This document shows, piece by piece, positions 1 through 52,524 of a stretch of 55,094 bases of DNA. The stretch is taken from the NCBI GenBank assembly GCA_030427295.1, contig JAUHWS010000002.1, positions 1 to 55,094 on the forward strand, in the 5' to 3' direction. Numbering within the stretch: position 1 is the first letter of the stretch; each line of letters opens with the position of its first letter. The notes under the pieces were generated by a model, which searched no databases, was not told the DNA's origin, and saw only the letters and a program-made list of their open reading frames with translations. The position numbers and the translations under genes were made by a program. This stretch comes from a bacterium (lineage in GTDB: Bacteria > Patescibacteriota > Gracilibacteria > UM-FILTER-43-11).

Positions 1-148
1 CCTTTGTCACTCTAGGACTTGATCCAAGAGTCGTCTTTATTTAGAGTGACTGAATTCAAAAAAGACTCCCGAGTTCACCTTTCTGGTAAACCACTCGCTA
101 AGCTCGTGGACCATAAAGGCTCGGGAGTGAGATGAAGGTGTAGGGTAG
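1..148 (-). repeat. Conserved structured 'tail' module of the dyad-element family. It is an inverted copy of 45713-45860 and may be truncated by the window edge.
   Basis: By manual alignment, the reverse complement of 1-148 matches 45713-45860 at roughly nine-tenths identity over the proximal ~130 nt. It contains the bulged hairpin ACTCCCGAG...CTCGGGAGT followed by a T-run on the minus strand. Confidence 0.8.
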
Positions 149-417
149 GTATATACTTTGGGTTGAGGTGAGTATATACTTCTTGCTTTATTTCGCATTC
201 TGAGATTCTCGCTTCAACGAAACAACATGATCACGAAATAACTGTTATTCAGATCTAATAACTCATTTATAGTTTATTTAGTGAGGTTTATAGTCCTACC
301 ATCGGTTGTTTCGTTCTAAGTTCCTTCATTATCACGTCGAACGTCAGCCAGTCGCCGAACCCCAGCATTTTGAAGAAGGTAGGTATATAGTTGGGGGGAG
401 GGTGAGTATATACTTCC
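146..417 (-). repeat. GTATATAC-dyad composite element, copy A
   Basis: Palindrome units phased 23 bp apart at 149-156 and 172-179, then 383-390 (GTATATAG) and 406-413. The ~195-bp spacer has complementary arms (CAACGAAACAAC 215-226 / GTTGTTTCGTT 305-315). Confidence 0.85.
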
Positions 418-2958: not shown

Positions 2959-3062
2959 ATTGAATGGAAGTTAACGCTTTATTAAGACTTTAAAATAATT
3001 TTTATTTTTGAGGATGTCAAATTTGGATTGATTCTAGCTTCTTATTTTTGGGGCTTAAAATG

Positions 3063-3290
3063 GTTGGGGTTAGTATATACTTTTTTAGAGCTGGTAGCTA
3101 TTAGCTGATAGACTAGTCGGTATTTAGCATAACTTAAATTATCTCTTATTTAAGATGAATAATGAGTTTTTTTAACTGAATTTAAACTACCAGCGACAAG
3201 CTCCGAGCTCTCAGCTTTTTGAGGAGGATAGGTATATATTTGGGAAGAAGGTAGGTATATACATGATGTGAGGATAAGTATATACTTTTC
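3063..3290 (-). repeat. GTATATAC-dyad composite element, copy B
   Basis: Units at 3073-3080, 3232-3239 (GTATATAT), 3255-3262 and 3278-3285, a 1+3 arrangement with 23-bp phasing. The spacer 3086-3225 is a hairpin (GAGCTGGTAGC... / ...CTACCAGCGACAAGCTCCGAGCTC) and aligns as a reverse complement to the spacer of copy D. Confidence 0.85.
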
Positions 3291-3295
3291 TAAAT

Positions 3296-3790
3296 CTATC
3301 CTAAACTTGCAAATCGATTTGCCGATCTTTGAAAGGACCCAGTGTCTAGTTCAAAATATGTCTCAGCTAGTTTTACCTCTTCTTCTTTTAGTGGTCCATC
3401 CATGACTAAGGCTACCAAACCTCTTCTTATCTCATCAACTACCTTATTAAATCTTGATGCCACCTCTCTTATCCTTACAATGCGTTCAATCTTTTCTTTG
3501 CTGTAGCCAAGATTAACTCTTCCACTCATGTCGGCCATTTTATTCTCTTCACGTTCTTTTGCTTCCACTCTCAATAAACCCTCGGCGGCGGCACGCATTG
3601 ATTGTAACTCAATTTCAAACAAAGCCTGAATCAGCTCCAATTGCTCATCAATTTTTGTGCCAAGCTTTAGAACTAAGCGAATTAGCTCGTCACGTATTTT
3701 ATTAATCTCCTCTTTCACCAAAGCCGATGCTGTATTAATCCTTCTTATTTGTTCTGTTTTGATTCCGTACGAGTCACTTTGAGCTTCCAT
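3296..3790 (-). CDS. Hypothetical coiled-coil protein (164 aa)
   Basis: ORF with heptad-like charged/Leu-rich sequence. No recognisable catalytic motif. Confidence 0.55.
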   Translation of the reverse strand: MEAQSDSYGIKTEQIRRINTASALVKEEINKIRDELIRLVLKLGTKIDEQLELIQALFEIELQSMRAAAEGLLRVEAKEREENKMADMSGRVNLGYSKEKIERIVRIREVASRFNKVVDEIRRGLVALVMDGPLKEEEVKLAETYFELDTGSFQRSANRFASLG

Positions 3791-4852: not shown

Positions 4853-4993
4853 GGTTATTTTTGTTATTTATATTTATTTTTCTGTGATGACTAAATTATA
4901 GCATAAGGCTTGATTTTTGTAAAAAAATATGTAAGGCTTGAGGAACCGTCTTGTTTTTGAGGAAAACTAAAAATTTTAAGCCATTCAACTTAT

Positions 4994-16450: not shown

Positions 16451-16737
16451 ATAGGTGGTCAATTTGAATTTAAATGGGTTTTTATTTAGAATTTTGATAA
16501 CCATGCTGATTTCCCGGAAATTCAGGGTTCTGGGGAGAAACGCGCGGGTAAAACGATGAATAAAGGAAAAAAGATGGTTCCGCTTCGTGTTCTCCCCAGC
16601 GCTTTTTGGTTCGTTTTTGGCGTCAAAAATGAATGAAAAGAAAAAATAAACAAAAAAATCTTAATGGAGTGAGTTGGTGATTTAAGACATTAGGATAAAA
16701 GGTGGTCAAAGGAAACATAGCAGTCATAAATAATTAT

Positions 16738-16770
16738 TAAAAAAAAAGACCGCCCCTGTTTGGAACGGCC
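16738..16770 (-). terminator. Rho-independent terminator of the vWA lipoprotein gene
   Basis: On the minus strand, GGCCGTTCC-AAACA-GGGGCGGTC (9-bp stem with G:U pairs) followed by a run of about nine T. Confidence 0.65.
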
Positions 16771-16793
16771 TCTTTGAACCCCCCTGATTGACT

Positions 16794-18500
16794 CTATTTG
16801 ATCAATAATTGCATCAATTCGATTTCTTGGTTCAGCTCAGTGTCCCCAATTGCCTCCATTTCGGATTCAAAGTAGCTCATGAAATCTTGAATGCGAGACT
16901 GGTAGCTTTCGGGAACTCGTAATTCGAGTGAACTGCGTTCCCAACTACTATCATCAACAATAGGAGGTAAACTCGTCAATTCAACCTCGTCCCATTCGGT
17001 GAAAATTGCCTCGTCGGGAATATTTTGGCTTCTAGCATCGATCGTCCAGTGCTTCATCAAATTGACATAGCGTGCGAGTAAAATCCCCTTTCGAATGCCA
17101 TCATTGTCATACTGCTCCTCGGATTCTTTGGGCAACTGAATCGTGACGGTGTCTCCGCCAACTTCACCGGATCGGTTTTTATATGAGGTACGGAGCGTGA
17201 CATCCTGATCATCCCCTGTCGACTTTAATTTGAGGATCACGATCCCCCCTCGGGTTTCTCCTTCTTTTTGTTTGGAGGGGAACAAGGTGTTCACTTTCAT
17301 GATTTCACCAGTGGAACGGTCGGCTTCGGGTGAGCCGTAGACGGTTTCGATTTCAAAACCTTCCGATTCGAGATTCAAGGCCAGATCAAACACGAGGGGG
17401 GTGACCATGTATTCAAATTCGTCATCCATGCGCGTTTTAAAATCTTCAGCCGAATGGACGGCATAATAATTAGCCCCTCGCACCTTACTGATAGCCTCCA
17501 CAAGTTCGGTGTTAAAATCCACGCCAATGCCGATGAAGCTGGTGAAGATGCCTTGGTCGGCATTTTGGTCTACCATTCCCAGCAATCCTATTTCACTCGT
17601 GGCTCCTTGATTGGGCATGGCATCGGTCAAAAAAATGATGCGATTTTCATATTCATTAGGATTGGCTTCAGATAATCCGTCAAAGAGTTCAGTTCCTTTT
17701 TGCAGACCGGCTTCCATATTGGTCCCCCCTTGCTCTTTGAGTTCTAAAACATGATTCTTGATGGACTCCATGTCTGTTTCGCCCACCACACTGAGTGGTT
17801 TAGCGAGATAAGCTGAATCATCAAAGACCACCATCCCAAATCGATCCTCTGCATTGAGATGGCCGAGCAAGTCAACGACGGATTCGTTGGCTAGTTCCAT
17901 TTTAGATTTGGGAGACGGAGCCTCTAGTTCATTTTGTTCAAATAAAGGAATTTCAGCAGAGCCATCGTAGTAGTATTCATCAAATGGGGATCCCATCGAA
18001 CCACTGATGTCCAGGACCACGACGAGATTGAGTTTTTTGCGTTCAAAGTCTGCTTCGTTTAGGTTGGAATTGAGGCCTACTTGAAGGTAGTGTTCCAGCT
18101 CTCCTGAGAAGGGATCTTCTGAGGCTGCGTAGCTGTAAGAAGGGCAAAAAAGTTCATCGCAGGCTTCTTGTTGACCGGTATCGAAGTAGTAATCATAAAA
18201 AACTCCCTCGTGGGTGATATCGCTCGGGAGAGGCAAGTAGCCCTTTTTGATATTTTCTCTGAAGTTGGCAATGTCTTTGGCACCGCCGGTGGAAAAGCCA
18301 AGGGCGGCACTACTTGGGGCTACCGCTGTATCAAAAGCAGCTTCGCTTTGAACGGCCATTTCCATGTCTTCCTCTAAATAATTGTATTCAAAGGCCCAGT
18401 CGTCTTTTTTTGTTAATAAGGGGTGAGAACTGCACCCACTCATGATAATGAGGGCAACGGCCATTAAAATCGCGAGTCTTTTTTTCGTGTCTTTATTCAT
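16794..18500 (-). CDS. von Willebrand factor A domain lipoprotein (YfbK-like)
   Basis: Lipobox IIMSGC. MIDAS motif VVVLDISGSMG. 568 aa. Confidence 0.8.
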   Translation of the reverse strand: MNKDTKKRLAILMAVALIIMSGCSSHPLLTKKDDWAFEYNYLEEDMEMAVQSEAAFDTAVAPSSAALGFSTGGAKDIANFRENIKKGYLPLPSDITHEGVFYDYYFDTGQQEACDELFCPSYSYAASEDPFSGELEHYLQVGLNSNLNEADFERKKLNLVVVLDISGSMGSPFDEYYYDGSAEIPLFEQNELEAPSPKSKMELANESVVDLLGHLNAEDRFGMVVFDDSAYLAKPLSVVGETDMESIKNHVLELKEQGGTNMEAGLQKGTELFDGLSEANPNEYENRIIFLTDAMPNQGATSEIGLLGMVDQNADQGIFTSFIGIGVDFNTELVEAISKVRGANYYAVHSAEDFKTRMDDEFEYMVTPLVFDLALNLESEGFEIETVYGSPEADRSTGEIMKVNTLFPSKQKEGETRGGIVILKLKSTGDDQDVTLRTSYKNRSGEVGGDTVTIQLPKESEEQYDNDGIRKGILLARYVNLMKHWTIDARSQNIPDEAIFTEWDEVELTSLPPIVDDSSWERSSLELRVPESYQSRIQDFMSYFESEMEAIGDTELNQEIELMQLLIK

Positions 18501-18573
18501 AATGCTTGGTTTAAAAAATAGTCATGATGGTATACGAGCCATAATGAAAAAGGTAACAGTTTCATTTGATGGG

Positions 18574-18848
18574 GGGAGGTATATACCTATCCTCTTCCCG
18601 ACTATATACCTATGTCTTAATTCATTCCAATTCATTCCAATACTCACCAATTCATTCCAAACAAATCCTAAACTTGAATTTCTAATGTCCAAATGATTTA
18701 TAATTTGTTTTATTTAAGCTATTTTATTTCAAATAATGTTTAAAAATTAGACATTCGGAATTCAGCTTTATTTGGATATTGCGACATTGGAAATTGGTCA
18801 TTGAGAAAAGTATATACCCACCTCAACCCAAAGTATATACCAATCCCA
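18574..18848 (+). repeat. GTATATAC-dyad composite element, copy C
   Basis: Units at 18579-18586, 18602-18609 (CTATATAC), 18810-18817 and 18833-18840 (2+2, 23-bp phasing). The spacer begins with AATTCATTCC repeated three times and has partially complementary TTGGAAATTGG words at its far end. Confidence 0.85.
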
Positions 18849-18923
18849 CTCTAAAATATAAAACGTGATGTTTACGAAACCATCATAAGATGGTAGTATT
18901 TTTTATTAATAATTGCAATCAAA

Positions 18924-19394
18924 ATGAAGCTTGATGGTCAGGGGATCCCCCCAACCCCCTTTGTAAAAGGGGTGGCTAATGAAAGATACAAAAAGTTCAA
19001 CCCAGGAATGCTTAAATTACCGATTAACATAAACAATATTGAAAAAGCGAGCAAGCTTCGCAAAAATATGACCGAACCTGAGAGAAGAGTTTGGAATAAA
19101 TTGTTATCAAAGAGTAAGCTAGAGCAATTAAGATTTTTGAAACAAAGGCCTGTTGGACATTATATTGTGGACTTTTTTTGCAGCAAACTCCTTTTGGCAA
19201 TTGAAATAGATGGTAATTCCCACTTTACAAAAGAAGGGGTTGAATATGACAAGCAAAGAACTCACTATTTATCACTATATGGAATAAAAGTTATCCGGTA
19301 CACAAATAAAGAAGTAATGGAAAATATTGAGGGTGTTTTTATTGATTTAAAAGAACAGATTAAAAAAAGAAAAAATGAATTGAAAATGAATTAA
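18924..19394 (+). CDS. DUF559 (Vsr/endonuclease-fold) domain protein. The true start may be the internal Met near 19008.
   Basis: MTEPERRVWNKL...VDFFC...IEIDGNSH...D..R...L...G..VIRY matches the DUF559 pattern. The first ~17 codons read through a G/C-run repeat. Confidence 0.8.
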   Translation: MKLDGQGIPPTPFVKGVANERYKKFNPGMLKLPININNIEKASKLRKNMTEPERRVWNKLLSKSKLEQLRFLKQRPVGHYIVDFFCSKLLLAIEIDGNSHFTKEGVEYDKQRTHYLSLYGIKVIRYTNKEVMENIEGVFIDLKEQIKKRKNELKMN

Positions 19395-19436
19395 TCTATA
19401 CCGAATTTACCCCCCTTTCACAAAGGGGTCGGGGGA

Positions 19437-20461: not shown

Positions 20462-20604
20462 GGATCAAATTATTAGTGACGAATGTCGAATGACACATTT
20501 AATGGTGAGTTGATTTTAGCACATTTGTTGCAGTTCTTCACATACTTATCTAAAATGGAGGTAGGCGATTATACTCGTAATAAATAATAAGTAATAAATA
20601 ATCG

Positions 20605-23268
20605 ATGTTAGACAAGCAGTACGACGCGAAAAAATATGAGGATGGGATCTATAAAATGTGGGAGGAATCTGGGGCATTTAAAGCCGATGTGAATTCTGAA
20701 AAAGAGGCATTTACGATTTCCATGCCACCTCCTAACGCCACTGGAACTCTGCACTTGGGTCATGCGGTGATGCTAGCGTTGGAGGATATCATGATCCGCC
20801 ATCGGCGCATGAAGGGTTATGAAGCTTTGTATTTGCCCGGGACCGACCATGCAGCGATTGCCACCGAGAATGTGGTGATCCGTAAAATCAAGGAGGAGAA
20901 AAAAATCAAAGACCCTCGCACTTTGGGTCGAGAAGCAGTCATTCAAGAGATCAAGGACTTCGTTGCCAATAGTCAAAATACCATCCGTAGCCAGGTGCGA
21001 AAAATGGGAACCAGTTGTGATTGGAGTCGAGAGCGATATACGATGGATGAGATGCTAAATCGCTGCGTGAATGAGGTGTTTGTGAAGATGTACAAAGATG
21101 GCTTGATCTACCGTGGTCATCGGATTGTCAACTGGGACCCCAACCTAAAAACCAATGTGTCAGATGATGAGATGGATTATGTGGAGAAGAAGGATTCGTT
21201 TTATTGGTTTAAATATGGACCGTTTACCATTGGAACGGTGCGACCCGAAACGAAGTTTGGGGATAAATATGTGGTCGTGCATCCAGACGATGAGCGCTAT
21301 CAGCAATATGAACATGGCGAGACCTTTGAATGTGAATGGATCAACGGGCCCATCACGGCGACGATTATTAAAGATAAGGCGGCCGATCCAGAATTTGGCA
21401 CAGGTGCCATGACGATTACCCCTTGGCACTCGGCTGTCGACTTTGAGATCGCTGAGCGTCACAATTTAGACAAAGAACAGATCATTGATTTAGAAGGTAA
21501 TTTGTTGTCCGTCGCTGACGAATTTGCAGGCATGCCCATCACTGAGGCTCGGGAGAAGATTGTGGAAAAATTGGATAAAAAAGGATTATTGGTCAAGGTG
21601 GAAGAAAATTATGTGCATAAAGTGGCCATCAACAGCCGTGGAAAAGGCATGATTGAACCTCAAATTAGGGAGCAGTGGTTCATCGATGTGAACAAAAAAG
21701 TTGTTCAATGGAAAGGGGTGACCCGCAGCCTCAAAGAGGTGATGCAGGAGGTGGTGCGCAGTGAGGAGATTAAAATTTTACCCGAGCGCTTTGATAAGAT
21801 TTATTTCAACTGGATCGATAACTTGAGGGACTGGTGTATCAGTCGGCAGATTTGGTGGGGGCATCAGATTCCTGTGTGGTACAAAACGGAGGGAGACAGT
21901 ACCGACATGCACGTGGGCGTGCAAGCCCCAGAGGGTGAGGGGTGGGAACGCGATCCGGACACCTTGGACACCTGGTTTAGCTCGGGGTCCTGGACCTGGA
22001 GCACCTTGATCGACCCCAATTTGGCGGATGACTACTCGCTCTCGCTTGAAGACATGCTTGAAAATAGCCCTGATTTTCAGAAATTCCATCCCACTCAAGT
22101 GCTTGAAACAGGTTATGACATTCTGTTTTTCTGGGTGGCCCGCATGATTTTGATGACGACTTATACGGTTGGAACCATTCCTTTTGACACGGTTTATTTA
22201 CATGGATTGATCCGAACGCGCGAAGGCAAAAAAATGAGTAAGTCGGATCCTAAAACCTGTATTGACCCCTTGGAGGTGATCGAAAAATACGGAGCGGATG
22301 CGCTGCGGATGAGCATGGTGATCGGGAGTAGCCCGGGGAATGACTCGCGGCTTTATGATGAAAAGATCAAAGGCTATCGAAATTTCACGAACAAATTGTG
22401 GAATGCCAGTCGTTTTGTGCTGGGAATTTTTGAAGAAAATGGCATCGCTGAAGCGCCAAAACTGGATCTGAAAAACCTTTCGGATGCGGATCAGTGGATT
22501 TTGGATAAGTTGAATAAAGTTGTTGTCGAAACCGACAACAGTTTGATGGAGTATAAAATTGGTGAAGCTGGGCAACTGCTTTATGACTTTGTCTGGAATG
22601 AGTTTTGTGATTGGTATTTGGAACTTTCGAAGGGTGAGAAACAGAACTTGGGAGTGCTCTATCACTGCCTTAAAACGATTTTGATCCTGCTACATCCCAT
22701 CACGCCGTTTGTGACGGAGCAGATTTGGAGTCAATTGCCAGGCGCGGAGGGCATGTTGATTCAGGCTGACTTCCCTACTCCATTGGAGGGTCAATTTGAC
22801 GGCAGTGCCGTTGAACTGACGATTGGAATTGTGTCTGCCATCCGAAGTATGCGCGCTGAAAACCAAATTGAAGCGGCTCAAAAAATTCCAGTCACTATCT
22901 TTGCCTATGACCATTTTGAAACCGTGGATCGCAATAAGCCTGATATCATAAGGCTGGCTCGACTCAGCGCCTTGAGCTTATATGGAACCGATGAGGAGAA
23001 GAAGTTGTCTGGAGCGGCTGCTGATGTGGTCAATGGTATGGAGATTTACATTCCCCTGGAAGGCTTGGTGGATACCGAGAAGGAAAAGGAGCGTCTGCAA
23101 AAGGAAATTGCTAATTTGACGAAATACATTGCTGGATTGACAGGGAAATTATCGAACAAAAAATTTGTTCAAAATGCGCCGGAAGCCATTGTAGAAGCTG
23201 AGAAAAATAAATTAGAGGAAGCCGAGGAGAAATTGGGGAAAATGGAGGAGCAATTGAAAAATTTGTAG
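20605..23268 (+). CDS. valS: Valine--tRNA ligase
   Basis: 887 aa. HIGH-type motif TGTLHLGHA, KMSKS motif, C-terminal coiled coil. Confidence 0.96.
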   Translation: MLDKQYDAKKYEDGIYKMWEESGAFKADVNSEKEAFTISMPPPNATGTLHLGHAVMLALEDIMIRHRRMKGYEALYLPGTDHAAIATENVVIRKIKEEKKIKDPRTLGREAVIQEIKDFVANSQNTIRSQVRKMGTSCDWSRERYTMDEMLNRCVNEVFVKMYKDGLIYRGHRIVNWDPNLKTNVSDDEMDYVEKKDSFYWFKYGPFTIGTVRPETKFGDKYVVVHPDDERYQQYEHGETFECEWINGPITATIIKDKAADPEFGTGAMTITPWHSAVDFEIAERHNLDKEQIIDLEGNLLSVADEFAGMPITEAREKIVEKLDKKGLLVKVEENYVHKVAINSRGKGMIEPQIREQWFIDVNKKVVQWKGVTRSLKEVMQEVVRSEEIKILPERFDKIYFNWIDNLRDWCISRQIWWGHQIPVWYKTEGDSTDMHVGVQAPEGEGWERDPDTLDTWFSSGSWTWSTLIDPNLADDYSLSLEDMLENSPDFQKFHPTQVLETGYDILFFWVARMILMTTYTVGTIPFDTVYLHGLIRTREGKKMSKSDPKTCIDPLEVIEKYGADALRMSMVIGSSPGNDSRLYDEKIKGYRNFTNKLWNASRFVLGIFEENGIAEAPKLDLKNLSDADQWILDKLNKVVVETDNSLMEYKIGEAGQLLYDFVWNEFCDWYLELSKGEKQNLGVLYHCLKTILILLHPITPFVTEQIWSQLPGAEGMLIQADFPTPLEGQFDGSAVELTIGIVSAIRSMRAENQIEAAQKIPVTIFAYDHFETVDRNKPDIIRLARLSALSLYGTDEEKKLSGAAADVVNGMEIYIPLEGLVDTEKEKERLQKEIANLTKYIAGLTGKLSNKKFVQNAPEAIVEAEKNKLEEAEEKLGKMEEQLKNL

Positions 23269-23372: not shown

Positions 23373-23621
23373 ATGTTCGAAGGCGCTCAGGCCAGCATCA
23401 TCGCTTACACGGAAGACCGGAAAAAAGCTCAAAGGCGTTATCAAGCCGCAGTAAAACAGGCTGCTTTTTTGGATGAGCAACAGAAACTCAATTGGTCGAC
23501 CATGGGCATGAGTTTACCCACGGAGCAACTGGAGCATGTTTGCCAAATGATTGTGGAAGAAAATCTCAAAAATCGTAAAACAAAAGGGGCTTTGGAAGTC
23601 CTCAAAACTAAAAATAAATAA
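23373..23621 (+). CDS. Small protein (82 aa), paralogue of the 16061-16450 product
   Basis: The ATG at 23373 is in frame with the tracked ORF 23322-23621. Shares the W...LP..EQL motif. Its stop lies 4 bp before the giant ORF's ATG. Confidence 0.6.
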   Translation: MFEGAQASIIAYTEDRKKAQRRYQAAVKQAAFLDEQQKLNWSTMGMSLPTEQLEHVCQMIVEENLKNRKTKGALEVLKTKNK

Positions 23622-23625
23622 ATTT

Positions 23626-26600
23626 ATGGCCCCACCAGGCTCTCGTCCAACATCACCGGAACTGGCCGAAGCCCTTAAAAAGCAGCGAGAAGGGTTGAGT
23701 GTTTCTGAGCTCGATAAACGAGCGGAGCAACTCTCGAAGGCTTCGAATGATGCCAGTGAAATCATGGCCATTCGGGGAGAAGTAGCGCCTGAAGAACAAC
23801 GGGCCCGGCTGAATAATTTGAAAACTAATTTGACGAGCCTGGTCGCCAAGATGGTATTACGTAACGTTAGGGTTGATGGTTTGGTTGCTCATCCAGAAAA
23901 TTTTGCCACCTTGTCACTCGGGCTTAAGTTGGACCGTCGTGCGGAAGAAGCCAGCATCTCAAAAATCACGGAACTCCTGGAGGGAACGGGCTTGACCTGT
24001 GAAGAAGTTCAAGATCCAGCGTTTTGGAACTCAATCATTCGTGATGGAAAACAAGTAGCAGAGATCATCCGCAAAGACGCTGAGTCGAAAAGCTCTAAAA
24101 ATACTATGGAGGCCATCAAGCAATTTGCCAAAAAAAATCCCGTAGCAGCTGCATTAGCCGGAGCGGGTGTGGCGATTGCAGGAGGGATGTTTTTATCTTT
24201 CCTCACCACGGAGATGAAAGACTTGTTCAGAAGTGAGAAGGGAGCGAATTGGAAAACGCGAGGAGGTCTGATGGGAACAGCTGGATTCTTAGCCCTGTGT
24301 CTTTTGAAGGGCCCCGAGTTTATGGAGTGGTATGAAAAATTAGAGATGACCCAAGAGGCCAAAGAAGATGTGGAACGCGCCGTGAAAGATGGAACGGGGA
24401 AGGTTAAGGAAGAAACCCGGCGAGCCATTGAAGCCGGTGGTGAAAAAGCGGTGGAGGCCTTTGAGGGGATGGGGGTGGATATGGAGACGACGATTGAAGC
24501 TGATAAGGAGCATCCACCAAGCACCCTAACGTTTTCTGAAAAAGACAAGGAGAAAGCTAAGTATGAAATGGCCACTTCGGCCTTCTTGAGATTGTATTTT
24601 TTTGAACGAGATTTTGGCCCTGATGAACGACGAACCTTTAAGCAAACGATCAATGACTTGTCGGATGTCCCCTTCTCTAAAATCAAATCAGTTTACGAAG
24701 CTAACCAATCAAATCAAAAGGTAAATCCATCTGAGCTGCCGGGGTTATCAGCAGATATTTCGGATGAATTGCTTTTCTCATTACTGGAAGGCTTGGTTAA
24801 GATGTCTATTTTGACTGAGGCGGAGCAGAATCCTGAAATAAGTGTTTATGCCTTATTTGTGAGTGCCGGTAAGCATCCTGCCCTTGACCAACTGGATGGC
24901 CTGAATGGTGAGCTGGTGGATAAATTAAAAAATTTAGATTTTAAAGGGGCCATTGATGTGATTGGTTCTCAATCTGTCAATTTAGCTGAAAATGTGGTTG
25001 AGTTTGGAGGTAAATTAGAATCCCAGCTGGATATCAACATCGATCATTTGAGTGGGGAAGAAAAAAAAGCGTACCGTGAAATTCAGGCTTTACTATTGAC
25101 TAGTAGTCAGGTGTCACAAAATCCAAAGGAAGCGGTGACTAATGTAATCAAGCCTCACCAGCAGTATCAATCCTTTCCGGAATCAATCTCCATGGCGGAA
25201 GTCTTTTTTGAAAAAATTAAAGCTAAAACACCCCCCATTCTAGACAAGGTTTATCAACATTTTGCCTTGGATGATTCAGGTCCGCTTCGTCGCGGAGTGA
25301 AGATTGAAACGCTGAGTTTCGCTTCAGCTTGTGAATTGATTGCTCTGGAAGCCTCTTTTGAAAATAGTTCTGAAACGTTGACTAGTTTGGCTCTTTTGAA
25401 TGCGGTATTGAGAGCTTTTGATAATTTGAATGATAAGAACAGCTACGTTGGTAAATTATCAGCCGAAGTACTCACCAAAGAAGTGAGTAAAATAAAACTA
25501 CCAGGACTTCAAAAAGTGAAGGCTCAATTTGATAAAATGGCTCCTTTAGCGGGTAATGCCTTGTGGAATTGGCTGAAGGACTACGTTCAAATTGGCTATG
25601 CCTTCTCTGAAGACAATCCTACGGATTTATCAGGGGCTGAATTTGCGGAACAAGCAACCCAAGCGCCCACTATTTCGTTTGGACGTGAGGCTGTGGGAGC
25701 CAGTTTAGAAATTGCTGGAGATAGTCTGGCTAGCATTGTTTTAACTTTAGGCCTAGAGGATTGGATCGGCAGCTGTAAAACCGGTGAAGATTTCTTAGAA
25801 ATGATTCGGGTCAATGGAGGGAATGTTGCTGTCACTGAAAATCGAGATGGAGCCTTGGAAGTGATCATTGAGGCCGGAGGGAAAATTTTCTTCGCTCGAC
25901 CCGGTAAAATCATCGGTCAAAGTTTGTACAATGGAAGCTTAGCCGGTGGCCGACTGGGAGATGGCGTGAAGATTTGGGCTGTGGGCTCAGCTCCATTTGT
26001 CGTTTATGGCGCTGCTAAAGGCTTTTTTAGAACGGTGACGGTGCCTGGTGGGCGTATCAGATTGGCCCCCATTTCTCGTATAGCCAACAGTATTACTGGA
26101 GGCTTAAAAGGTATGACTTACCCTGCTGTAGCCGGCTACAAAGGAGTTCGGGCGGTTGGTCGCGTGGTACGTGGCGTCTCGACACCACGACAAAACTTAC
26201 GCTATCTAGGAGAAAAAATCGCTCAAAAACCTCGCCGTGTTTACAATTGGGGAAGGGACATTGTGCGTTACAGAAATAGACCATTTCAAAATGTGGATAA
26301 CTTGGCCACGTCTTATCGCATGTTAAAACGTCACTATGAGGCGGTTAAGGATTTGCCTATCAAATCAGCGGGGGCCATGCACGACCAATGGCAAATTACC
26401 CGAGACATCAGGCAGGGGTGGGCGAGCATTCGTACGGACGCTGAAGATATTCGCCATGCTTTGACACGTCAGGTTACACTTCCAGACACTTTGAGGAACC
26501 GTACCTTGATCCATCAGACAAAAAAATTGGCTTGGGAAACGGGTAAAAAACTCAACAGCTATTTTCTGTATGAAAAAGGTGAGGGTCATTTGATGGCCAA

Positions 26601-29526
26601 CTTAGACCACCCAGAAATTAAGGAGATCATAGAAAGTTCTGAGAGGCTGAAGCGTTTTGGAGAATATTCAAAAGTAAATCCTCACCTAATGCGAGAAGTT
26701 AAATTATTGGTGAAGGGTCGATTATCAGAGGTAGATGAAAAAATTAAAGACTTACTTAAAACAACAGGCACTCTTGATGCAGGTGAAGCGAAGGCTCTTG
26801 CACGTCGAATTGTTAAACACCCGAGTACCGTCGAACAAATTTTTAAGGGCGCTGAACGTGCGGCTGATCAGTTTGTACTCAGTTCGGAATATCTTGCCAA
26901 AGGACCGGCTGCAGCAAATACTGCGAAACAAAATGGACCTCAAAATCCTATCAAAAGCCCAATCACTGGCATTGAATCCCTTAAGCCAACCGACTCACGC
27001 ACTATTAAAGAAATTAAACTCAATGATGAATGGGTCCGTGTGACTGAAGGCCCTTTGGCTGAAGAAAGAGCCATGGGTCGTTATATGAAGGTTGGAAGTG
27101 ATCGGCTCATTCAAGAATATAAGATTAATGGTGAGTGGGTCAGAGTTGCTGATGGACCCAATGCTCTTGAGGAAGCCAAGACAAAGTATATGAAACAGTT
27201 GAAGGTGAATTATACCGGTACACTTAGGCAATTTGAGGTTAATGGGGAATTAATTGCAGTACCTGAGGGGCCGGATGCGATTGAGCAAGCTAAGAAGAGG
27301 TATATGGACATCACTAGGGATAACATTAGTATTTCTGGAAAACGCATTACGCCTGGATTTAATGAATTTAAAATCAACAATGAGTGGATTCGGGTGAGTG
27401 AGGGGGAGGAAGCCCTTGAGCGAGCAAAGAGGAGGTATTTAAAAATAGTCGAACAGCGTACAAAAATAAGTGACGTTGGCAAGCTGAGGGAGTTTAAAAT
27501 CAATGATCAATTGGTTCGTGTGAGTCATGGTCCCGATTTGCATGAGCGGGCAAAGAGGAGATACATAAAAATTGAGGATTCACGAAAGCTCAGAGAATTT
27601 AAAATCAATGATCAATGGATAAAAGTGACTGAAGGACCTGAAGCGCTTAAGCGGGCAAAGACGCGTTATTCAAAACAAGTTCAAGTTGGAAGCTCTCGTA
27701 CCCTTCAAGAATTTAAAATCAATGACCAGTGGATAAAGGTCACCAAAGGCCCCGATGCCCTTGAACGAGCTCAAAGGAGGTACTTAAAAATCAATAAAGT
27801 ACCTCAATCCCCCCCGAAAACCCCTATAAAAACCGCCTCTATCTCCAGAACCAAAACCGCCTTCGGAGGTAAATTTGGGCAAATGGTCCAAGCTCCAAAT
27901 GGTCCTACAACAACACCCGCTCAAACCCCTGAAGCTAAAGCAGCTGCCAAAAAAGGGTTTGAAAAAGCCGCTAAATCGGCTGGTGTGTCGATTGATGTGG
28001 CAGCGATGAAGAATCCACAACTCATTGCATGGTTCCCTGTGTTGAAAGAAATGGTCGGACCTGCAAGTGCTGTGGCGACGATCGCTTATTTGGAAACGGC
28101 GGAAGACAAAAAAAAGGCCTTGGCGGAATCAGCGGTTGGCTTGGCAGCCTTCACTGGAGCACAGAAGGGAACATTCTTTACGCTGGGAAAGATTAATCCA
28201 GCCATGGTCAAATCAAAGCTTGGCCTGGGTATCTCAGTTGTGGCCGGCTTGGGAGCAGCGATTGGAGTGACTGAACCCGTAGCTGAAATTTTAGACGAGT
28301 ATATTCCTAAATTTGTGGGTGATAAACAAGTTTATGCCGAAATTGCCAGTCTGACCGAGAGAATTCTTGGTTATCAGGCGGCCCGTGGCCTGCTCAAACC
28401 TGCCACCAAGGTGGCTCTAAAAGAAGGACTCTCTGTTGGAGCCAAGAGCTTGGCAAAAGTCATCCCTATGAAAGTGAGGAATTCGGTCGGGAAGCGCCTG
28501 GCTTATTTGACCGGAAGCAGCCTGAGTAAAAAACTTGCCATGACCCTAGGAGTGCGTGGAACAGCCATGGCTGCCACCGCTGCCAGCCCGATTCCTGGAG
28601 ATGAGGTCGCCATGTTGGTAATTTTTGGACCCTGGATGGCCAAAGACATTTACGATATTGTCAGTTTGAGCTCCAAAGCATATAGCATCAGCAAAGCCAT
28701 GGATCACTATGGAAAAAAAGAGATTGAGGACATTAAACCTGCCACAGAACAGGATGAAAAGATGTTTGAAGCCACCTTGGCAGGATTGGGCATGAGCGAA
28801 GAAGCCTTTGCCGTCCTTGATGAGGCGAGTAAGCAAAATATTTTTCAATCGATTCCGGACATCACCTACAAAGTCAAACGATCTGGCGAGTCAAACTACA
28901 ATGAGACCTACCGTTTTGTAAAGGGGGAAGTTTACTCAACCACTATTGTGACCCCCGAGGGGGAAACGGTTGAATTATCCGATGAAGAACTCAATCAAGA
29001 CATTAAACTTCCACCACCACAAGAGCTCAAAAAGTGGGATATCGATTACAAGCAAGCTCCAGATGTTTTGAAAGCCAACTATCGTCTGGCCATTTTGATG
29101 GCCAAAGGTGAATGTGGGTGGACCAAGATGGATTTTGACATCCGGAATGATGGCGAAATTGTGATGAAGCGACTGGATGGCAAGAAAGAATCGCTCGTCT
29201 TGCGCCGTCATGGGGACAAGTGGTCTGTGGGTGAATATGGCGATGGTTATGATTTATTCCAGGCCATTGTATTGGGAAACTTGATCAACAAAGTGGGAGG
29301 TATCATCGAAAAAGAGGGTTATCGAGGCGGAAGTGAACGGCCATTTTCAATCACACGCAATGGGATTGAATTTGATAAAAGTTGGAGCGCCTTCAATTTG
29401 GGCATCTTATCGAATGAAGCAGGTTGGCTTGGCTTTTACGACAAAATCGGTCTCAATCAACGGGATGTGATGAAAGCCCTCAACGCTTGGTATCAAGTTG
29501 AGCATGGTAAAAAGGCTCTTGTTTAA
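23626..29526 (+). CDS. Giant membrane-associated repeat protein (about 1,966 aa), function unknown
   Basis: The start is taken at ATG 23626 (MAPPGSRPTSPE) to avoid overlap with the upstream gene. Hydrophobic helices lie near the N-terminus (AAALAGAGVAIAGGMFLSFL, GGLMGTAGFLALCLL) and in the C-terminal third. Seven tandem ~35-45-aa repeats. Confidence 0.8.
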   Translation: MAPPGSRPTSPELAEALKKQREGLSVSELDKRAEQLSKASNDASEIMAIRGEVAPEEQRARLNNLKTNLTSLVAKMVLRNVRVDGLVAHPENFATLSLGLKLDRRAEEASISKITELLEGTGLTCEEVQDPAFWNSIIRDGKQVAEIIRKDAESKSSKNTMEAIKQFAKKNPVAAALAGAGVAIAGGMFLSFLTTEMKDLFRSEKGANWKTRGGLMGTAGFLALCLLKGPEFMEWYEKLEMTQEAKEDVERAVKDGTGKVKEETRRAIEAGGEKAVEAFEGMGVDMETTIEADKEHPPSTLTFSEKDKEKAKYEMATSAFLRLYFFERDFGPDERRTFKQTINDLSDVPFSKIKSVYEANQSNQKVNPSELPGLSADISDELLFSLLEGLVKMSILTEAEQNPEISVYALFVSAGKHPALDQLDGLNGELVDKLKNLDFKGAIDVIGSQSVNLAENVVEFGGKLESQLDINIDHLSGEEKKAYREIQALLLTSSQVSQNPKEAVTNVIKPHQQYQSFPESISMAEVFFEKIKAKTPPILDKVYQHFALDDSGPLRRGVKIETLSFASACELIALEASFENSSETLTSLALLNAVLRAFDNLNDKNSYVGKLSAEVLTKEVSKIKLPGLQKVKAQFDKMAPLAGNALWNWLKDYVQIGYAFSEDNPTDLSGAEFAEQATQAPTISFGREAVGASLEIAGDSLASIVLTLGLEDWIGSCKTGEDFLEMIRVNGGNVAVTENRDGALEVIIEAGGKIFFARPGKIIGQSLYNGSLAGGRLGDGVKIWAVGSAPFVVYGAAKGFFRTVTVPGGRIRLAPISRIANSITGGLKGMTYPAVAGYKGVRAVGRVVRGVSTPRQNLRYLGEKIAQKPRRVYNWGRDIVRYRNRPFQNVDNLATSYRMLKRHYEAVKDLPIKSAGAMHDQWQITRDIRQGWASIRTDAEDIRHALTRQVTLPDTLRNRTLIHQTKKLAWETGKKLNSYFLYEKGEGHLMANLDHPEIKEIIESSERLKRFGEYSKVNPHLMREVKLLVKGRLSEVDEKIKDLLKTTGTLDAGEAKALARRIVKHPSTVEQIFKGAERAADQFVLSSEYLAKGPAAANTAKQNGPQNPIKSPITGIESLKPTDSRTIKEIKLNDEWVRVTEGPLAEERAMGRYMKVGSDRLIQEYKINGEWVRVADGPNALEEAKTKYMKQLKVNYTGTLRQFEVNGELIAVPEGPDAIEQAKKRYMDITRDNISISGKRITPGFNEFKINNEWIRVSEGEEALERAKRRYLKIVEQRTKISDVGKLREFKINDQLVRVSHGPDLHERAKRRYIKIEDSRKLREFKINDQWIKVTEGPEALKRAKTRYSKQVQVGSSRTLQEFKINDQWIKVTKGPDALERAQRRYLKINKVPQSPPKTPIKTASISRTKTAFGGKFGQMVQAPNGPTTTPAQTPEAKAAAKKGFEKAAKSAGVSIDVAAMKNPQLIAWFPVLKEMVGPASAVATIAYLETAEDKKKALAESAVGLAAFTGAQKGTFFTLGKINPAMVKSKLGLGISVVAGLGAAIGVTEPVAEILDEYIPKFVGDKQVYAEIASLTERILGYQAARGLLKPATKVALKEGLSVGAKSLAKVIPMKVRNSVGKRLAYLTGSSLSKKLAMTLGVRGTAMAATAASPIPGDEVAMLVIFGPWMAKDIYDIVSLSSKAYSISKAMDHYGKKEIEDIKPATEQDEKMFEATLAGLGMSEEAFAVLDEASKQNIFQSIPDITYKVKRSGESNYNETYRFVKGEVYSTTIVTPEGETVELSDEELNQDIKLPPPQELKKWDIDYKQAPDVLKANYRLAILMAKGECGWTKMDFDIRNDGEIVMKRLDGKKESLVLRRHGDKWSVGEYGDGYDLFQAIVLGNLINKVGGIIEKEGYRGGSERPFSITRNGIEFDKSWSAFNLGILSNEAGWLGFYDKIGLNQRDVMKALNAWYQVEHGKKALV
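27004..27798 (+). repeat. Seven in-frame tandem repeats inside the giant ORF
   Basis: Repeated motif [RQ]EFKIN[DN][QE]W[IV][RK]V[TS]EGP[ED]ALERAKRRY[LIM]K, seen seven times in the translation. The DNA repeats gaatttaaaatcaatga. Confidence 0.9.
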
Positions 29527-30165: not shown

Positions 30166-30233
30166 GTTATATAAAAATGTTATTATCTATATTATAGCAT
30201 TAAATCTTGTTTTTATAAAGGTCTATTGTTAGG

Positions 30234-39308: not shown

Positions 39309-39921
39309 AAAGATATGCCGCGGCGAACTCTGACTATTTTGAGGGATAAATCTCATCATCAAAAACTGCCAAAGAATCAGGCTGACAGAGGCAGAGTCCA
39401 TTGTGCGTCTGCTTGGTGATCCTTATGGCGATACAAAGCTTTCCAGGGCCATCCGCAATATTTTTATATTTGTCTCAACGTCTTATAATCTGCTCTTGGC
39501 CTGCAAGGGGTTTTCTACTCCGAATGAGGTTGGCTTTTCAAAAAAATGTTCGACTCAGTCGCCTGATGTCTAAAAAATACTTGAGATTTATTTAAAAAGA
39601 TAGTACCTTATCTGAGCTCACTGAGTATTTTTAGAGTTGATTTGAAGGGAGGGTGAATGAGAGACTGAAATAGCTGGACGGTGAAAAAAAGAGTGAGTCA
39701 AAAACGGAGACCCCGCAAAATGCAAGGTGGGGGCGAACGCAGTGAGAAGAGAAGGGTATTTTGTGGGGAAGAGGAGGCGTTTATGTAGGCTGGAGCAGGT
39801 GCCGAGCGAGGCACATGCGTAAGCCGGAATAAAATGACGACGTGTCACCCCCGATTTTCATCGGGGCAGGCGCTGCTCAGTTGGTTAAATAAAGAAGTGC
39901 AGTTATTCTAAATACCGATGT

Positions 39922-39998
39922 GTCACCATAGCTCAGTTGGTTAGAGCGCAGGACTCATAAGCCTGAGGTCCCTGGTTCAATTCCAGGTGGTGACACCA
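39922..39998 (+). tRNA. tRNA with CAT anticodon (elongator Met or lysidine-modified Ile2), CCA encoded
   Basis: Manual cloverleaf: acceptor GTCACCA/TGGTGAC, D arm GCTC-AGTTGGTTA-GAGC, anticodon loop CTCATAA, T arm CCTGG-TTCAATT-CCAGG, discriminator A plus CCA. There is one A:G mismatch at the base of the anticodon stem. The G1:C72 pair argues against an initiator. Confidence 0.88.
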
Positions 39999-40138
39999 AT
40001 TAGCTTTATTTAAGCCAAAAATCAAGGGTCGACTCGCGTGCCAAGAGCCACAGGCCGTTTTGCTTCTCATTTTTATGGTTTTCTTTTCTCTCAATTTGAT
40101 GTGATGTATACTTAACCTGTACACCATTAAATAATGAA

Positions 40139-45489: not shown

Positions 45490-45720
45490 TGGAGTATATA
45501 CTCACCTTCTCCTAAACTATATACTTATCTTCCATAAAAAGCTGGGAGTTGGGAGCTTGTTGCTGGTAGTTAAATCCAGCTAAGATAACTCTCTATTACT
45601 CTTAAATAAGAGATAACTTGAGTTATTCTAAATTCTGACTCGTCTACCAGCTAACATCTAATAGCTATCAGCTCGAAAAAAGTATATACCCACCTCAACT
45701 CAAAGTATATACCCATCCTA
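45490..45720 (+). repeat. GTATATAC-dyad composite element, copy D
   Basis: Units at 45494-45501, 45517-45524 (CTATATAC), 45682-45689 and 45705-45712 (2+2, 23-bp phasing). The spacer 45534-45675 is a long imperfect hairpin homologous to the reverse complement of the copy B spacer. Confidence 0.88.
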
Positions 45721-45860
45721 CACCCTCATGTCACTCCCGAGCCTTTATGGTCCACGAGTTTACGAGTGGTTTACCAGAAAGGTGAACTTGGGAGTCTTTT
45801 TGAATTCAGAGAGTCCAAATACAGACGACTCTAGGGTCTAACGCCCTAGAGTGATAAATG
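45713..45860 (+). ncRNA. Candidate structured RNA/terminator module (the 'tail') shared with 1-148
   Basis: Hairpin of about 21 bp with bulges: ACTCCCGAG-CCTTT-TGG-CCAC / GTGG-CCA-AAAGG-CTTGGGAGT, followed by TCTTTTTG, then a second hairpin CTCTAGGG-TCTAACG-CCCTAGAG. One copy difference gives a G:U pair on this strand only. Confidence 0.45.
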
Positions 45861-45873
45861 ATTATTTACCATT

Positions 45874-45975
45874 CAGGACCTCCCCCCTTACCCCTCACAA
45901 ACCCATCTTATTGTCCTCCTCCCCGTGGAGGGGGAAAGAGATTGATGGGTGAATCACTTTTAGGGGGAGGTCCTG
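45874..45975. repeat. Nested G/C-run inverted repeat
   Basis: Outer pair CAGGACCTCCCCCC / GGGGGAGGTCCTG, middle pair ACCCATC / GATGGGT, inner pair CCTCC / GGAGG. Confidence 0.7.
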
Positions 45976-46047
45976 ATGAGATAATTTAAGTTATTCTAAA
46001 TACCGACTAGTCTACTAGCTCCCAGCTACAAGCTAATAGCTATATTA
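45976..46047 (+). repeat. Half-copy of the B/D-type spacer arm, without dyad units
   Basis: GAGATAATTTAAGTTATTCTAAATACCGACTAGTCTACTAGCT...AGCTAATAGCTAT aligns closely to the reverse complement of 3090-3150 and to 45610-45672. Confidence 0.75.
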
Positions 46048-47745: not shown

Positions 47746-48002
47746 TCCTATTTATTATACCAAATTTTGGCTAAAAAACAAGGTTTTTTACGATCCACTA
47801 GCCAAAAACCTACTTGTGAATGGACCGAAGCATATGATAGGCTTGGGTAAAGGATCATTGCTCCATTTTCGTTCGCCAACTGTTTGTAATTTTAAATCGA
47901 TTAGCGATTAGCATGTCGATGTAACTTCAAAACTATTCGTAAGCTATCAGCAGCCTATTCGCACCCCATTCGTAATTAATAATTTGTAATTAGCTATTAA
48001 GT

Positions 48003-48608: not shown

Positions 48609-48657
48609 GAGTGGTGAGTGGTGAGTGGTGAGTGGTGAGTGGTGAGTGGTGAGTAAT
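48609..48657 (+). repeat. Tandem heptamer GAGTGGT x6 plus one degenerate unit (GAGTAAT)
   Basis: Perfect units start at 48609, 48616, 48623, 48630, 48637 and 48644. The repeat lies between ruvA and pgi. Confidence 0.95.
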
Positions 48658-48681
48658 TGATAATAAATAATAAAAAATAAA

Positions 48682-49965
48682 ATGCTTCACCTTCAATTTG
48701 ATAATATTTCTGCCAAAAAGGTTAGTCTGCTTCACGGCATTTCTGAAGCACGGCTTCGTCGTTTTTGTGAAAAGAATCAGACCTTGGTGGACACAGTTTT
48801 TAAATCGAAAACGAAGGCAGGTTATCATTTTTTGGCTTTGCCGGATGCTAAGTCAACAGTTGCCAAGGTGAAAAAATTTGTGGCTTCTCAGACCAAAGCT
48901 GGCTGGAAGCACATTGTTTTGTTGGGGATTGGGGGCAGTGCTTTGGGTCCGCTGGCTGTGAGAGATGCTTTGATCAGCCCCTTTGCAAAAACGGCTAAAT
49001 TGCATGTTTTGGATAATGTGGATCCTGCATTTGCCAGTGATGTGCTAGACAATATTCCTCTGGCCAAAACGCTATTTATCGTCATTTCTAAATCAGGCAC
49101 CACCACTGAGCCAATGGCTCTGTATGCCGTCGTGAAAGAACGGCTTCAGAAAAAGTTTCCAAAGGATTATCAGAAACATTTAGTTTTTGTGACAGATCCC
49201 AAAAATGGGCTCTTGAGAGAAATTGCTAAAGCAGAAAATATTATTACGTTCGACATTCCTCCTAAAATTGGGGGGCGCTTTAGTGTATTGACCAATGTAG
49301 GCTTGCTCCCCTGTGCCCTGGCTGGAGTGGACATTGGTGGACTACTCAAAGGAGCTCGCATGATGCGCGAATCCCTGAAAAAAAATAAGGGGTTTTATAA
49401 TGTGGCCCTCAAGTTAGCTGCTGTCCAATTTTTACTGGATCAAAAGAAGGGTAAATCGATGACGGTTCTCATGCCCTACAGTAACCACTTGTTTCGCATT
49501 GGGGATTGGTATCGGCAATTGTTGGCTGAGAGCATTGGGAAAAATCGATGGTCAGGCCCAACGCCCATCAATGCCCTGGGAACGACGGATCAACACTCTC
49601 AGCTACAACTTTACAATGACGGTCCCAATAACAAATTAATTATTTTCATGCGCGTCCTCAAGCCAGCCAAAGATTTGAAATGGGGCAATGTTTTGCCGGA
49701 TGAAATCGGTTTTTTGAACCATAAAAAAATGAGTCAGGTGATTGATGCAGCCTATCAAGGCACGTCCCAAGCCCTCACAAAACACAAGCGACCCAATTTA
49801 ACGATCGAGGTGCCCAAGGTAGATGCAGCGAGTTTGGGGGCTCTATTCATGCTTTTTGAGTTTGAAATAGCCCTTTTAGGACAATTGTATAAGGTGAATG
49901 CCTTTGATCAACCTGGTGTGGAACACAGTAAAAAAATCACTAAAAAACTGCTGATGAATTTGTAG
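48682..49965 (+). CDS. pgi: Glucose-6-phosphate isomerase
   Basis: VISKSGTTTEP motif and SIS-domain layout. 427 aa. Confidence 0.88.
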   Translation: MLHLQFDNISAKKVSLLHGISEARLRRFCEKNQTLVDTVFKSKTKAGYHFLALPDAKSTVAKVKKFVASQTKAGWKHIVLLGIGGSALGPLAVRDALISPFAKTAKLHVLDNVDPAFASDVLDNIPLAKTLFIVISKSGTTTEPMALYAVVKERLQKKFPKDYQKHLVFVTDPKNGLLREIAKAENIITFDIPPKIGGRFSVLTNVGLLPCALAGVDIGGLLKGARMMRESLKKNKGFYNVALKLAAVQFLLDQKKGKSMTVLMPYSNHLFRIGDWYRQLLAESIGKNRWSGPTPINALGTTDQHSQLQLYNDGPNNKLIIFMRVLKPAKDLKWGNVLPDEIGFLNHKKMSQVIDAAYQGTSQALTKHKRPNLTIEVPKVDAASLGALFMLFEFEIALLGQLYKVNAFDQPGVEHSKKITKKLLMNL

Positions 49966-52426: not shown

Positions 52427-52524
52427 AAAATGAATGATGACAATCCATAATATGTAATCCACAATAAGTAATAAAAAATATAAAACTGAACAACAAAGGC
52501 GTCTCGCTGGCCATTGCCATTGGT

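Follow-up and report, generated by a model that had tools for sequence, protein, structure and literature searches.

The window analysed here, 55,094 bp in length (positions 1 to 55,094 of contig JAUHWS010000002.1), is ordinary chromosome of a Peregrinibacteria bacterium, a member of the candidate phyla radiation (CPR), and is not phage. Its genes include uvrA, ruvA, ruvB, dnaG, rpoD, greA, valS and pgi, together with one tRNA-Met, SLH-domain proteins and type IV pilin-like genes. The closest homologues of its UvrA have 84-88% identity, and those listed under a name come from Candidatus Peregrinibacteria or Patescibacteria. A cyanobacterial origin, which the style of the sequence had at first suggested, was rejected, since these matches point to Patescibacteria and the window contains no HIP1 site. 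Scans with Pfam, NCBIfam and PHROGs found no transposase, recombinase, integrase, Rep or Cas protein among the open reading frames (ORFs) of the window, in agreement with the original prediction (made from the nucleotide sequence alone) that no Rep, transposase or integrase gene is present. Intergenic DNA makes up 11% of the window, and all four copies of the composite repeat described here (A, B, C and D; Table 1) are within it, a distribution not expected from random placement (p ~1.5e-4).

Four intergenic copies of a composite repeat

The four copies share a single plan, in which a left array of two or three 23-bp units is followed by a self-complementary core of 136-188 bp and then by a right array of one or two units. 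By total length there is a shorter pair of copies, B (228 bp) and D (234 bp), and a longer pair, C (277 bp) and A (280 bp). There is no conserved ORF in the element, the reading frame being broken between A and D. Each 23-bp unit is composed of a self-complementary 8-bp head (N-TATATA-C) and a 15-nt C/T-rich tail. The exact 8-mer GTATATAC is present 12 times in the window compared with an expectation of 0.21, none of 100 shuffled sequences reaches 12, and chance was rejected as a source of the pattern. All 12 exact sites are within the four loci, as the original prediction had proposed. If the outer bases of the head are free to vary there are 16 units, four at each locus, with none in a gene and no background scatter of the motif. 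Three other NTATATAN sites in the window, at 30167, 34224 and 38073, are without the pyrimidine-rich tail. We also built a position weight matrix from the 16 units themselves, which scores these members at 13.5-33.2 bits compared with a maximum of 15.4 bits in shuffled windows. A scan with this matrix finds no solo or eroded units elsewhere in the window, and the sole extra match is an inverted tail that uses the leftmost head of copy C.

Neighbouring units are spaced by exactly 23 bp in all nine cases. Defining 'forward' as the head and then the C/T-rich tail, the unit polarity is uniform within each locus and is the same in both arrays, with A and B on the minus strand and C and D on the plus strand; both the phasing and the single orientation are as first described. 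We note that all 16 units have TATATAC at head positions 2-8 and an A at position 11, and the C at position 13 is present in 15 of them, whereas the tails of different unit classes have only about half of their positions in common. The head is thus the constrained part of the unit, because it is invariant while the tails differ between classes. The right array is the best-conserved block, with ~90% identity among A, C and D. Its first unit, R1 (GTATATACYCACCTCAACYCAAA), has 13-14 of the 15 tail positions common to these three copies, and for its second, R2 (GTATATACCNAYCCYAC), A and D agree at 12 of the 15 tail positions, whereas the agreement with C is at only 7-8 of 15; in copy B the right array consists of R1 alone. 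The left-array units form a looser class (CTAYCYTCYTCCCAA) whose likenesses cut across positions. For example, the second left unit of A matches the middle unit of B (13/15), which in turn matches the first left unit of C (12/15). The left units therefore act as interchangeable copies in a tandem array, two or three in number. The prediction that every locus has exactly four units is correct as a count at all four loci, but not as a rule, and the number looks like an apparently coincidental sum of two or three left and one or two right units. Unit clustering gives no support for the interpretation of the 3+1 layout of B as a circular permutation or att-type arrangement with R2 as the leftmost unit.

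Copies A, B and D are directly downstream of same-strand genes. Copy A begins 7 nt past the strong intrinsic terminator of an SLH gene, copy B begins 10 nt past the stop codon of a 164-aa gene, and copy D is located between convergent gene ends; copy C points away from its upstream gene. All four loci are where they were first placed, but A and D extend further, into a common structured module of ~140 nt that had not been included.

Table 1. Coordinates of the repeat copies, their parts and other features in the window, and of similar boxes in an unrelated genome
Feature	Coordinates	Strand	Remarks
Copy D, left array	L1 45494-45516; L2 45517-45539	+	L1 GTATATACTCACCTTCTCCTAAA; L2 CTATATACTTATCTTCCATAAAA
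Copy D, core	45540-45681	+	B/D type; apex CTCTTAAATAAGAG; A-run at end before R1
Copy D, right array	R1 45682-45704; R2 45705-45727	+	
Copy D, accessory structured module	45728-45860	+	Common to copy A, 87.5% identity
Copy A, whole	134-413	-	
Copy A, left array	L1 391-413; L2 368-390	-	
Copy A, core	180-367	-	Type A
Copy A, right array	R1 157-179; R2 134-156	-	
Copy A, accessory module	about 1-133	-	Cut by window edge
Copy B, whole	3058-3285	-	
Copy B, left units	3263-3285; 3240-3262; 3217-3239	-	
Copy B, core	3081-3216	-	B/D type
Copy B, single right unit	3058-3080	-	
Copy C, whole	18564-18855	+	
Copy C, inverted tail	18564-18586	-	Shares L1 head
Copy C, left array	L1 18579-18601; L2 18602-18624	+	L2 tail replaced past 18613
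Copy C, core	18625-18809	+	Type C
Copy C, right array	R1 18810-18832; R2 18833-18855	+	
Solo right half of B/D-type core	45978-46041	+	No GTATATAC units
Non-element TTATTTAAG/TTTATTTAG sites	40006; 45399; 16481		Past gene or tRNA ends
Non-element TTATTTAAG/TTTATTTAG site	36		In module by copy A
Non-element TTATTTAAG/TTTATTTAG site	39240		Inside coding ORF
A/T-rich leader GTAATnnATAATAAGTAATAAA	15457-15489; 20577-20606; 47973-47997; 48653-48682; 52454-52483		
Boxes in Pseudogemmobacter faecipullorum (L013)	4970-5022		Three GTATATAC, 23- and 22-bp spacing, upstream of 365-aa gene

Cores, accessory module and neighbouring small repeats

The cores are of three types, A, C and B/D, which are mutually unalignable (z < 2.1), as the original prediction had recognised for what it called spacers. 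They are 26-38% GC, and all are capable of forming hairpins, with self-complementarity z-scores (self against reverse-complement score) of 2.6, 4.6, 6.3 and 3.2 and folding-energy z-scores of -1.5, -2.4, -3.2 and -3.6 for A, B, C and D, respectively. Copies B and D, which face in opposite directions 42 kb from each other, are homologous along the entire element (207 nt, 80% identity), and the composite has therefore been copied as one unit. The core of copy A has its first 8-10 nt in common with B and D, and nothing beyond. Tandem heptamers, (AGCTNNN)n, make up the outer arms of the B/D core, which has AGCT...AGCT inverted termini and is flanked on both sides by A-runs; if read in reverse, the A, B and D cores each have T4-5 after them.

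The conservation of arm complementarity had been attributed to selection on structure, and this is not sustained. None of the 28 predicted pairs in the B/D core shows a compensatory change in a comparison of two sequences, the only homologous core pair, and independent palindromic repeats explain the arms equally well. Since half of a B/D core is found alone a short distance to the right of copy D, the cores look like palindromic repeats in their own right, in which case inheritance, and not selection, would account for the complementary arms. A conserved fold in which left heads pair with right heads was considered and rejected, as it is predicted in D only and the heads of A and C pair locally.

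The solo half-core has an exact 18-mer, AGTTATTCTAAATACCGA, in common with a stretch directly 5' of the tRNA-Met (region 39885-40013), where it ends 3 nt ahead of the tRNA and is possibly a promoter. The tRNA-Met and this stretch are bracketed by a perfect 10-nt inverted repeat (TTAAATAAAG / CTTTATTTAA), and an 11-nt complement of the tRNA-Met 3' end is at 39842-39852. The core-apex 9-mers TTATTTAAG and TTTATTTAG are also present at five non-element sites (Table 1), so that TTATTTAAG does not serve as a hallmark of the element as had been suggested; the two may be a general end-of-gene or intergenic signal of this genome.

The module adjoining copies A and D consists of a stem-loop with 26 pairs, a U-run, and then a second stem-loop. 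It folds with a z-score of -4.5 in forward orientation and -3.0 on the opposite strand, and there is one compensatory change (G:C to A:U in stem-loop 2) among 35 pairs in the two sequences; the module may itself function as a small RNA or as a terminator. A second palindromic element (45873-45976) is situated in the same intergenic region as copy D, between the module and the solo half-core, and has perfect 14-nt arms (TCAGGACCTCCCCC / GGGGGAGGTCCTGA) 76 nt apart. Its sole Rfam signal is a sub-threshold match to whalefall-1 (E = 0.31). The presence of this element beside D indicates that small repeats nest in this genome.

Distribution in relatives, databases and a second assembly

The family is restricted to this lineage. 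The relatives available for comparison have UvrA proteins 86-88% identical to that of the window and total ~80 kb; the uvrA-to-greA gene order is kept in L018-L020, L022 and L026 (and through to ValRS in L018), and the SLH-to-ruvB order is kept in L025. Five gene-order-sharing relatives contain no unit, and no similarity to the four loci (blastn). Copies B and C are within lineage-specific gene islets. One of these (window 16451-19436) contains a VWA gene, copy C and a DUF559 endonuclease-like gene, all inserted between two conserved genes that overlap in L018. In the other (window 2020-3790), the 164-aa gene, copy B and a 312-aa ORFan are in place of a HepT/MNT toxin-antitoxin pair in L025. 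The 312-aa ORFan was considered as an element-linked protein and rejected, having no homologue or paralogue among 5.8 billion proteins and no match in PDB, Pfam, NCBIfam or PHROGs. The intergenic sequences of the relatives are too diverged to align for an empty-site comparison. There is no shared or duplicated flank indicative of a target-site duplication at C or D, and the right end of A is off the window.

Searches further afield used a degenerate double-unit pattern that fits all eight unit pairs of the window. This gave 14 single matches in one genome per species (185,579 species) and one in IMG/VR, and a stricter double-unit pattern gave two matches in JGI metagenome contigs. The metagenome matches and the genome matches that were inspected (L002, L008, L011 and L013) look like chance occurrences, mostly genic or in unrelated taxa. 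Scans of viral contigs with a single unit and with the module gave no match, a search with the core 18-mer gave one chance match in a phage gene, and blastn against plasmids and phages gave none. Nothing over the units, cores or module was found in Rfam at E < 5, with only the tRNA-Met passing, and the units and module, translated in several frames and concatenated, had no match among the 5.8 billion proteins. The element is thus unclassified, as had been stated, with no counterpart in Rfam, plasmids or phages. Exact-protein look-ups matched contigs of the same strain only, and four were without any match.

Logan contigs from run ERR3428543, which were produced by a second assembler, are 100% identical to the window and cover parts of A, B and C; identical contigs are also present in a second run. 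The element is not an assembly artefact, because the second assembler yields identical sequence. One contig (L023) spans window positions 3233 to 407, including the core and R1 of copy B, and another (L024) begins at 18812, inside the R1 head of copy C. Three of the six Logan contig ends (407, 3233 and 18812) are inside 8-bp heads, which constitute 0.23% of the window, and none of the 31-mers at these three ends is repeated within the window. From the k-mer geometry, two of the head-located ends would fit near-identical copies elsewhere in the genome. The end at 407 adjoins unique flanking sequence; heterogeneity in the population at the left junction of copy A is one possible cause of it.

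Possible origins and roles of the element

We tentatively favour, although without calling it probable, the interpretation that the four loci are copies of a lineage-restricted, protein-less, non-autonomous mosaic mobile element, or the decaying remains of one, whose units bind a dimeric protein encoded elsewhere. Mobility is suggested by the extreme enrichment and phasing of the units, the invariance of their heads, their restriction to intergenic DNA and their absence from relatives, by the copying of the whole composite in B and D, and by the position of B and C in lineage-specific islets. A non-autonomous element is suggested because the ends are conserved (notably the right arrays of A, C and D) and the cores are unalignable, a combination by which such elements are defined. 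The occurrence of half a B/D core without units argues for nesting of independent repeats, and the three contig ends inside heads are consistent with further copies in the genome. A plausible mechanism is that the heads, approximately two helical turns apart, act as phased sites for a dimeric transposase or recombinase whose gene is elsewhere in the genome. The heads are palindromic, so that, judged by the heads alone, the ends are both direct and inverted, and the binding protein could find the two ends equivalent despite tails that point the same way. The core would be an exchangeable passenger, a separate palindromic repeat family nested in or recombined into the scaffold at the same point, after the A-run that closes the left array, and the ~140-nt module at A and D would be a further optional block.

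Several observations weigh against a mobile element. No transposase or recombinase is encoded in the window and no autonomous parent element was found; neither a target-site duplication nor an empty site is definable; and the copies are 10-20% divergent, which gives no indication that the element was active very recently. The evidence comes from four copies in a 55-kb window, and all four scaffolds contain a core, with no 'empty' four-unit scaffold, which is awkward for independent nesting. Furthermore, we know of no well-studied cut-and-paste system that uses a conserved direct tail polarity.

As a class, the elements are small interspersed non-coding repeats, of an already known kind. Two well-known types are the bacterial interspersed mosaic elements (BIMEs) of E. 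coli, which are composed of inverted repetitive extragenic palindromic (REP) sequences, and the pneumococcal BOX elements, with a boxA-(boxB)n-boxC organization. The elements described here are similarly short, non-coding, intergenic, modular, hairpin-capable, lineage-restricted and protein-less, with variable numbers of tandem sub-units. What sets them apart from both is the exchangeable palindromic core, which has on either side an array of 23-bp units whose heads are palindromic and whose tails all share one polarity. Miniature inverted-repeat transposable elements (MITEs) are also similar, and the copies resemble these in being 228-280 bp, non-coding, intergenic, present in four copies, conserved at the ends and variable in the interior, and absent from close relatives. 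Unlike MITEs, they have no terminal inverted repeats beyond the 8-bp head (the only inverted tail is at the left edge of copy C), no target-site duplication is seen, and no parent insertion sequence (IS) is known for the element. The original prediction had set MITEs aside on the grounds that the ends are direct; the tails are indeed direct and there are no long inverted ends, but the palindromic head also reads as inverted, which weakens this argument.

Among transposon ends, those of Tn7, Mu and Tn552 have ~22-bp units, with the left and right ends mutually inverted. The scale of the repeated units at each end and their uneven number and spacing on the left and right are similar here, but in each of the four copies the tails, which are asymmetric, have one polarity throughout both arrays. 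The comparison with iterons and with multi-site transposase ends made in the original prediction may still be a reasonable lead as to mode of working. The closest mechanistic analogue, in mode of working only, is the end of IS607-family elements, which is similar in general layout. IS607-family elements use a serine transposase (TnpA), have no terminal inverted repeats and create no target-site duplication, and their ends contain several directly repeated, helically phased subterminal motifs on which multiple transposase dimers assemble (PMC6188088). In IS1535 these motifs are 9 bp with 10-11-bp phasing and are 20-60 bp from the tip (PMC6188088). By contrast, the 23-bp units here contain an 8-bp palindrome and abut the element boundary, and there is no tnpA or tnpB gene in the window.

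The first alternative, which we regard as unlikely, is that a dimeric host protein binds the arrays cooperatively and that these serve as operator-like, centromere-like or nucleoid-organising sites, with the two arrays brought together across a bendable AT-rich core able to extrude as a cruciform. An 8-bp perfect palindrome every 23 bp is the classic geometry for cooperativity between dimers on the same face of the DNA, and the invariance of the heads while the tails drift also points in this direction. Iterons and plasmid centromeres (e.g. the R6K and RK2 iterons and R1 parC) are composed of ~20-bp direct repeats, with a period of about two helical turns, near an AT-rich region, and comparable two-armed layouts are present in plasmid R1 parC, with five plus five iterons around a core, and in P1 parS. 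Phased direct repeats in two blocks beside an AT-rich core are shared by the elements here. One match from the genome scan, in an alphaproteobacterium unrelated to the window (L013; Table 1), is a natural analogue of phased palindromic operator boxes; the N-terminus of the gene downstream of its GTATATAC boxes has a weak, sub-threshold match to a ribbon-helix-helix domain (RHH_5, E = 0.013). However, iterons and par sites are present once per replicon and close to rep or par genes, whereas there are four loci in 55 kb here, with three unrelated cores and no rep, par or dnaA gene. The family is also missing from five relatives with the same gene order and so is not a conserved host feature, and neither the position of D between convergent gene ends nor that of A past a strong terminator offers anything to regulate. 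The homology of B and D through the core indicates copying and not convergent sites, and four sites per 55 kb with swapped cores and an optional module resemble the dynamics of repeats.

Two more specific roles at the DNA level were considered and rejected. One is that of a promoter cassette: promoter-like matches are at shuffle level, and outside copy B there is a TTGACA-17-TATTTT promoter that belongs to the 312-aa gene. The motif TTAAATAA is not enriched upstream of genes. The other is a replication-fork trap or orientation switch, given that A and B are reversed and C and D forward; the window has no GC-skew switch and no dnaA or dif context.

A role at the RNA level is distinctly unlikely. 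The element could be part of a 3' untranslated region or a small RNA, acting as a processing, stability or termination signal or as a protein sponge, in which a two-unit block would form an 8-9-bp AU stem with a C-rich loop, the core a long hairpin, and the module a terminator-like 3' end in A and D. The position of A, B and D directly 3' of same-strand genes is consistent with this, although copy C is directed away from its upstream gene and the strong intrinsic terminator ahead of A makes read-through from upstream unlikely. Adjacent heads are predicted to pair (-7 kcal/mol, z -3.6), and the forward-strand folding of the module, the U-run past its first stem-loop and the compensatory pair in its second also favour an RNA, as do the T4-5 following the reverse-orientation cores and the exact 18 nt that the right arm of the B/D core shares with the stretch upstream of tRNA-Met. 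However, there is no covariation in the B/D core and no Rfam match even at the permissive threshold, promoter-like sites are no commoner than in shuffles, and terminator-like sites are marginally above shuffles, at C and D. Shine-Dalgarno (SD)-like motifs are found upstream of only 3 of 43 genes, which makes an anti-SD role of the C-rich tails moot, and an anti-SD sponge or a reverse-strand SD-like function was rejected on the same grounds.

More doubtful still is the possibility that the scaffold is a 23-bp minisatellite of about four tandem units, acting as an insertion hot spot in which three unrelated palindromic MITEs landed independently. The B/D core does behave as an independent repeat, with its inverted termini, flanking A-runs and separate half-copy, the cores are unrelated yet each is palindromic, and several other small palindromic elements are present in the D intergenic region. 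However, none of the four scaffolds is uninterrupted and no intact array was seen in the weight-matrix scan. In addition, the core of copy B follows the third unit rather than the second, the core of C replaces part of the L2 tail, and the short sequence that the A core has in common with B/D points to recombination rather than to clean insertions.

We consider it very improbable that the scaffold is the cassette site of an undescribed CPR site-specific system, in which a recombinase or processing protein that recognises the GTATATAC head is recruited by the arrays and the hairpin is the payload, which could be DNA exchanged as a cassette or could serve as precursor to a guide or regulatory RNA derived from the hairpin. 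Such a system would explain the presence of three unrelated but always palindromic cores at one position in a conserved frame, as well as the Logan contig end at 407, which the repeats of the window leave unexplained. Finally, chance, an assembly artefact or a described class (CRISPR, REP/BIME, a known IS or MITE, or a replication origin) is scarcely credible: the resemblance is superficial (direct repeats, an AT-rich centre and hairpins), and is opposed by the excess of exact sites over expectation, the identical second assembly, the empty Rfam, plasmid and phage searches and the lack of rep genes, by units that abut, with none of the similar-length spacers (~25-75 bp) that separate the 23-50-bp repeats of a CRISPR array, around a 136-188-bp self-complementary 'spacer' in a window with no cas genes (CRISPR having been excluded from the outset), and by four copies in 55 kb of ordinary chromosome, which is incompatible with an origin.

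The family is real, well delimited, apparently undescribed and unusual in architecture, and a new mechanism is not demonstrated. To our knowledge, the layout, with phased palindromic-head units, same-polarity tails and a swappable palindromic core, is found in no well-studied transposition system. The genomes of CPR bacteria (Patescibacteria) are small and streamlined and are thought to hold little repetitive or mobile DNA, and a search of a literature library for interspersed repeats in CPR found nothing. At approximately one element per 14 kb the family would represent a noticeable share of a ~1-Mb genome, and it would also cause assembly breaks in metagenome bins. A protein that reads the 23-bp unit could reveal a new form of transposon-end recognition or a new chromosome-organising factor.

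Three further observations concern other parts of the window. First, a perfect 10-nt inverted repeat (CTGGGGAGAA / TTCTCCCCAG), with arms 50 nt apart, is present at 16530-16599 within a 343-bp spacer 3' of a 129-aa gene, and the Logan contig L021 stops at 16609, 10 nt past it, with no cause visible in the window. Second, a recurrent A/T-rich leader, GTAATnnATAATAAGTAATAAA, is located directly 5' of greA, valS, ruvA, pgi and one other gene (Table 1); the scarcity of SD-like motifs suggests SD-independent initiation of translation with a conserved leader or promoter motif. Third, a 1991-aa ORF (23551-29526) without a confident Pfam domain contains in-frame tandem coding repeats at 26992-27789, each ~105-126 nt, with a mutual identity of 60-75%.

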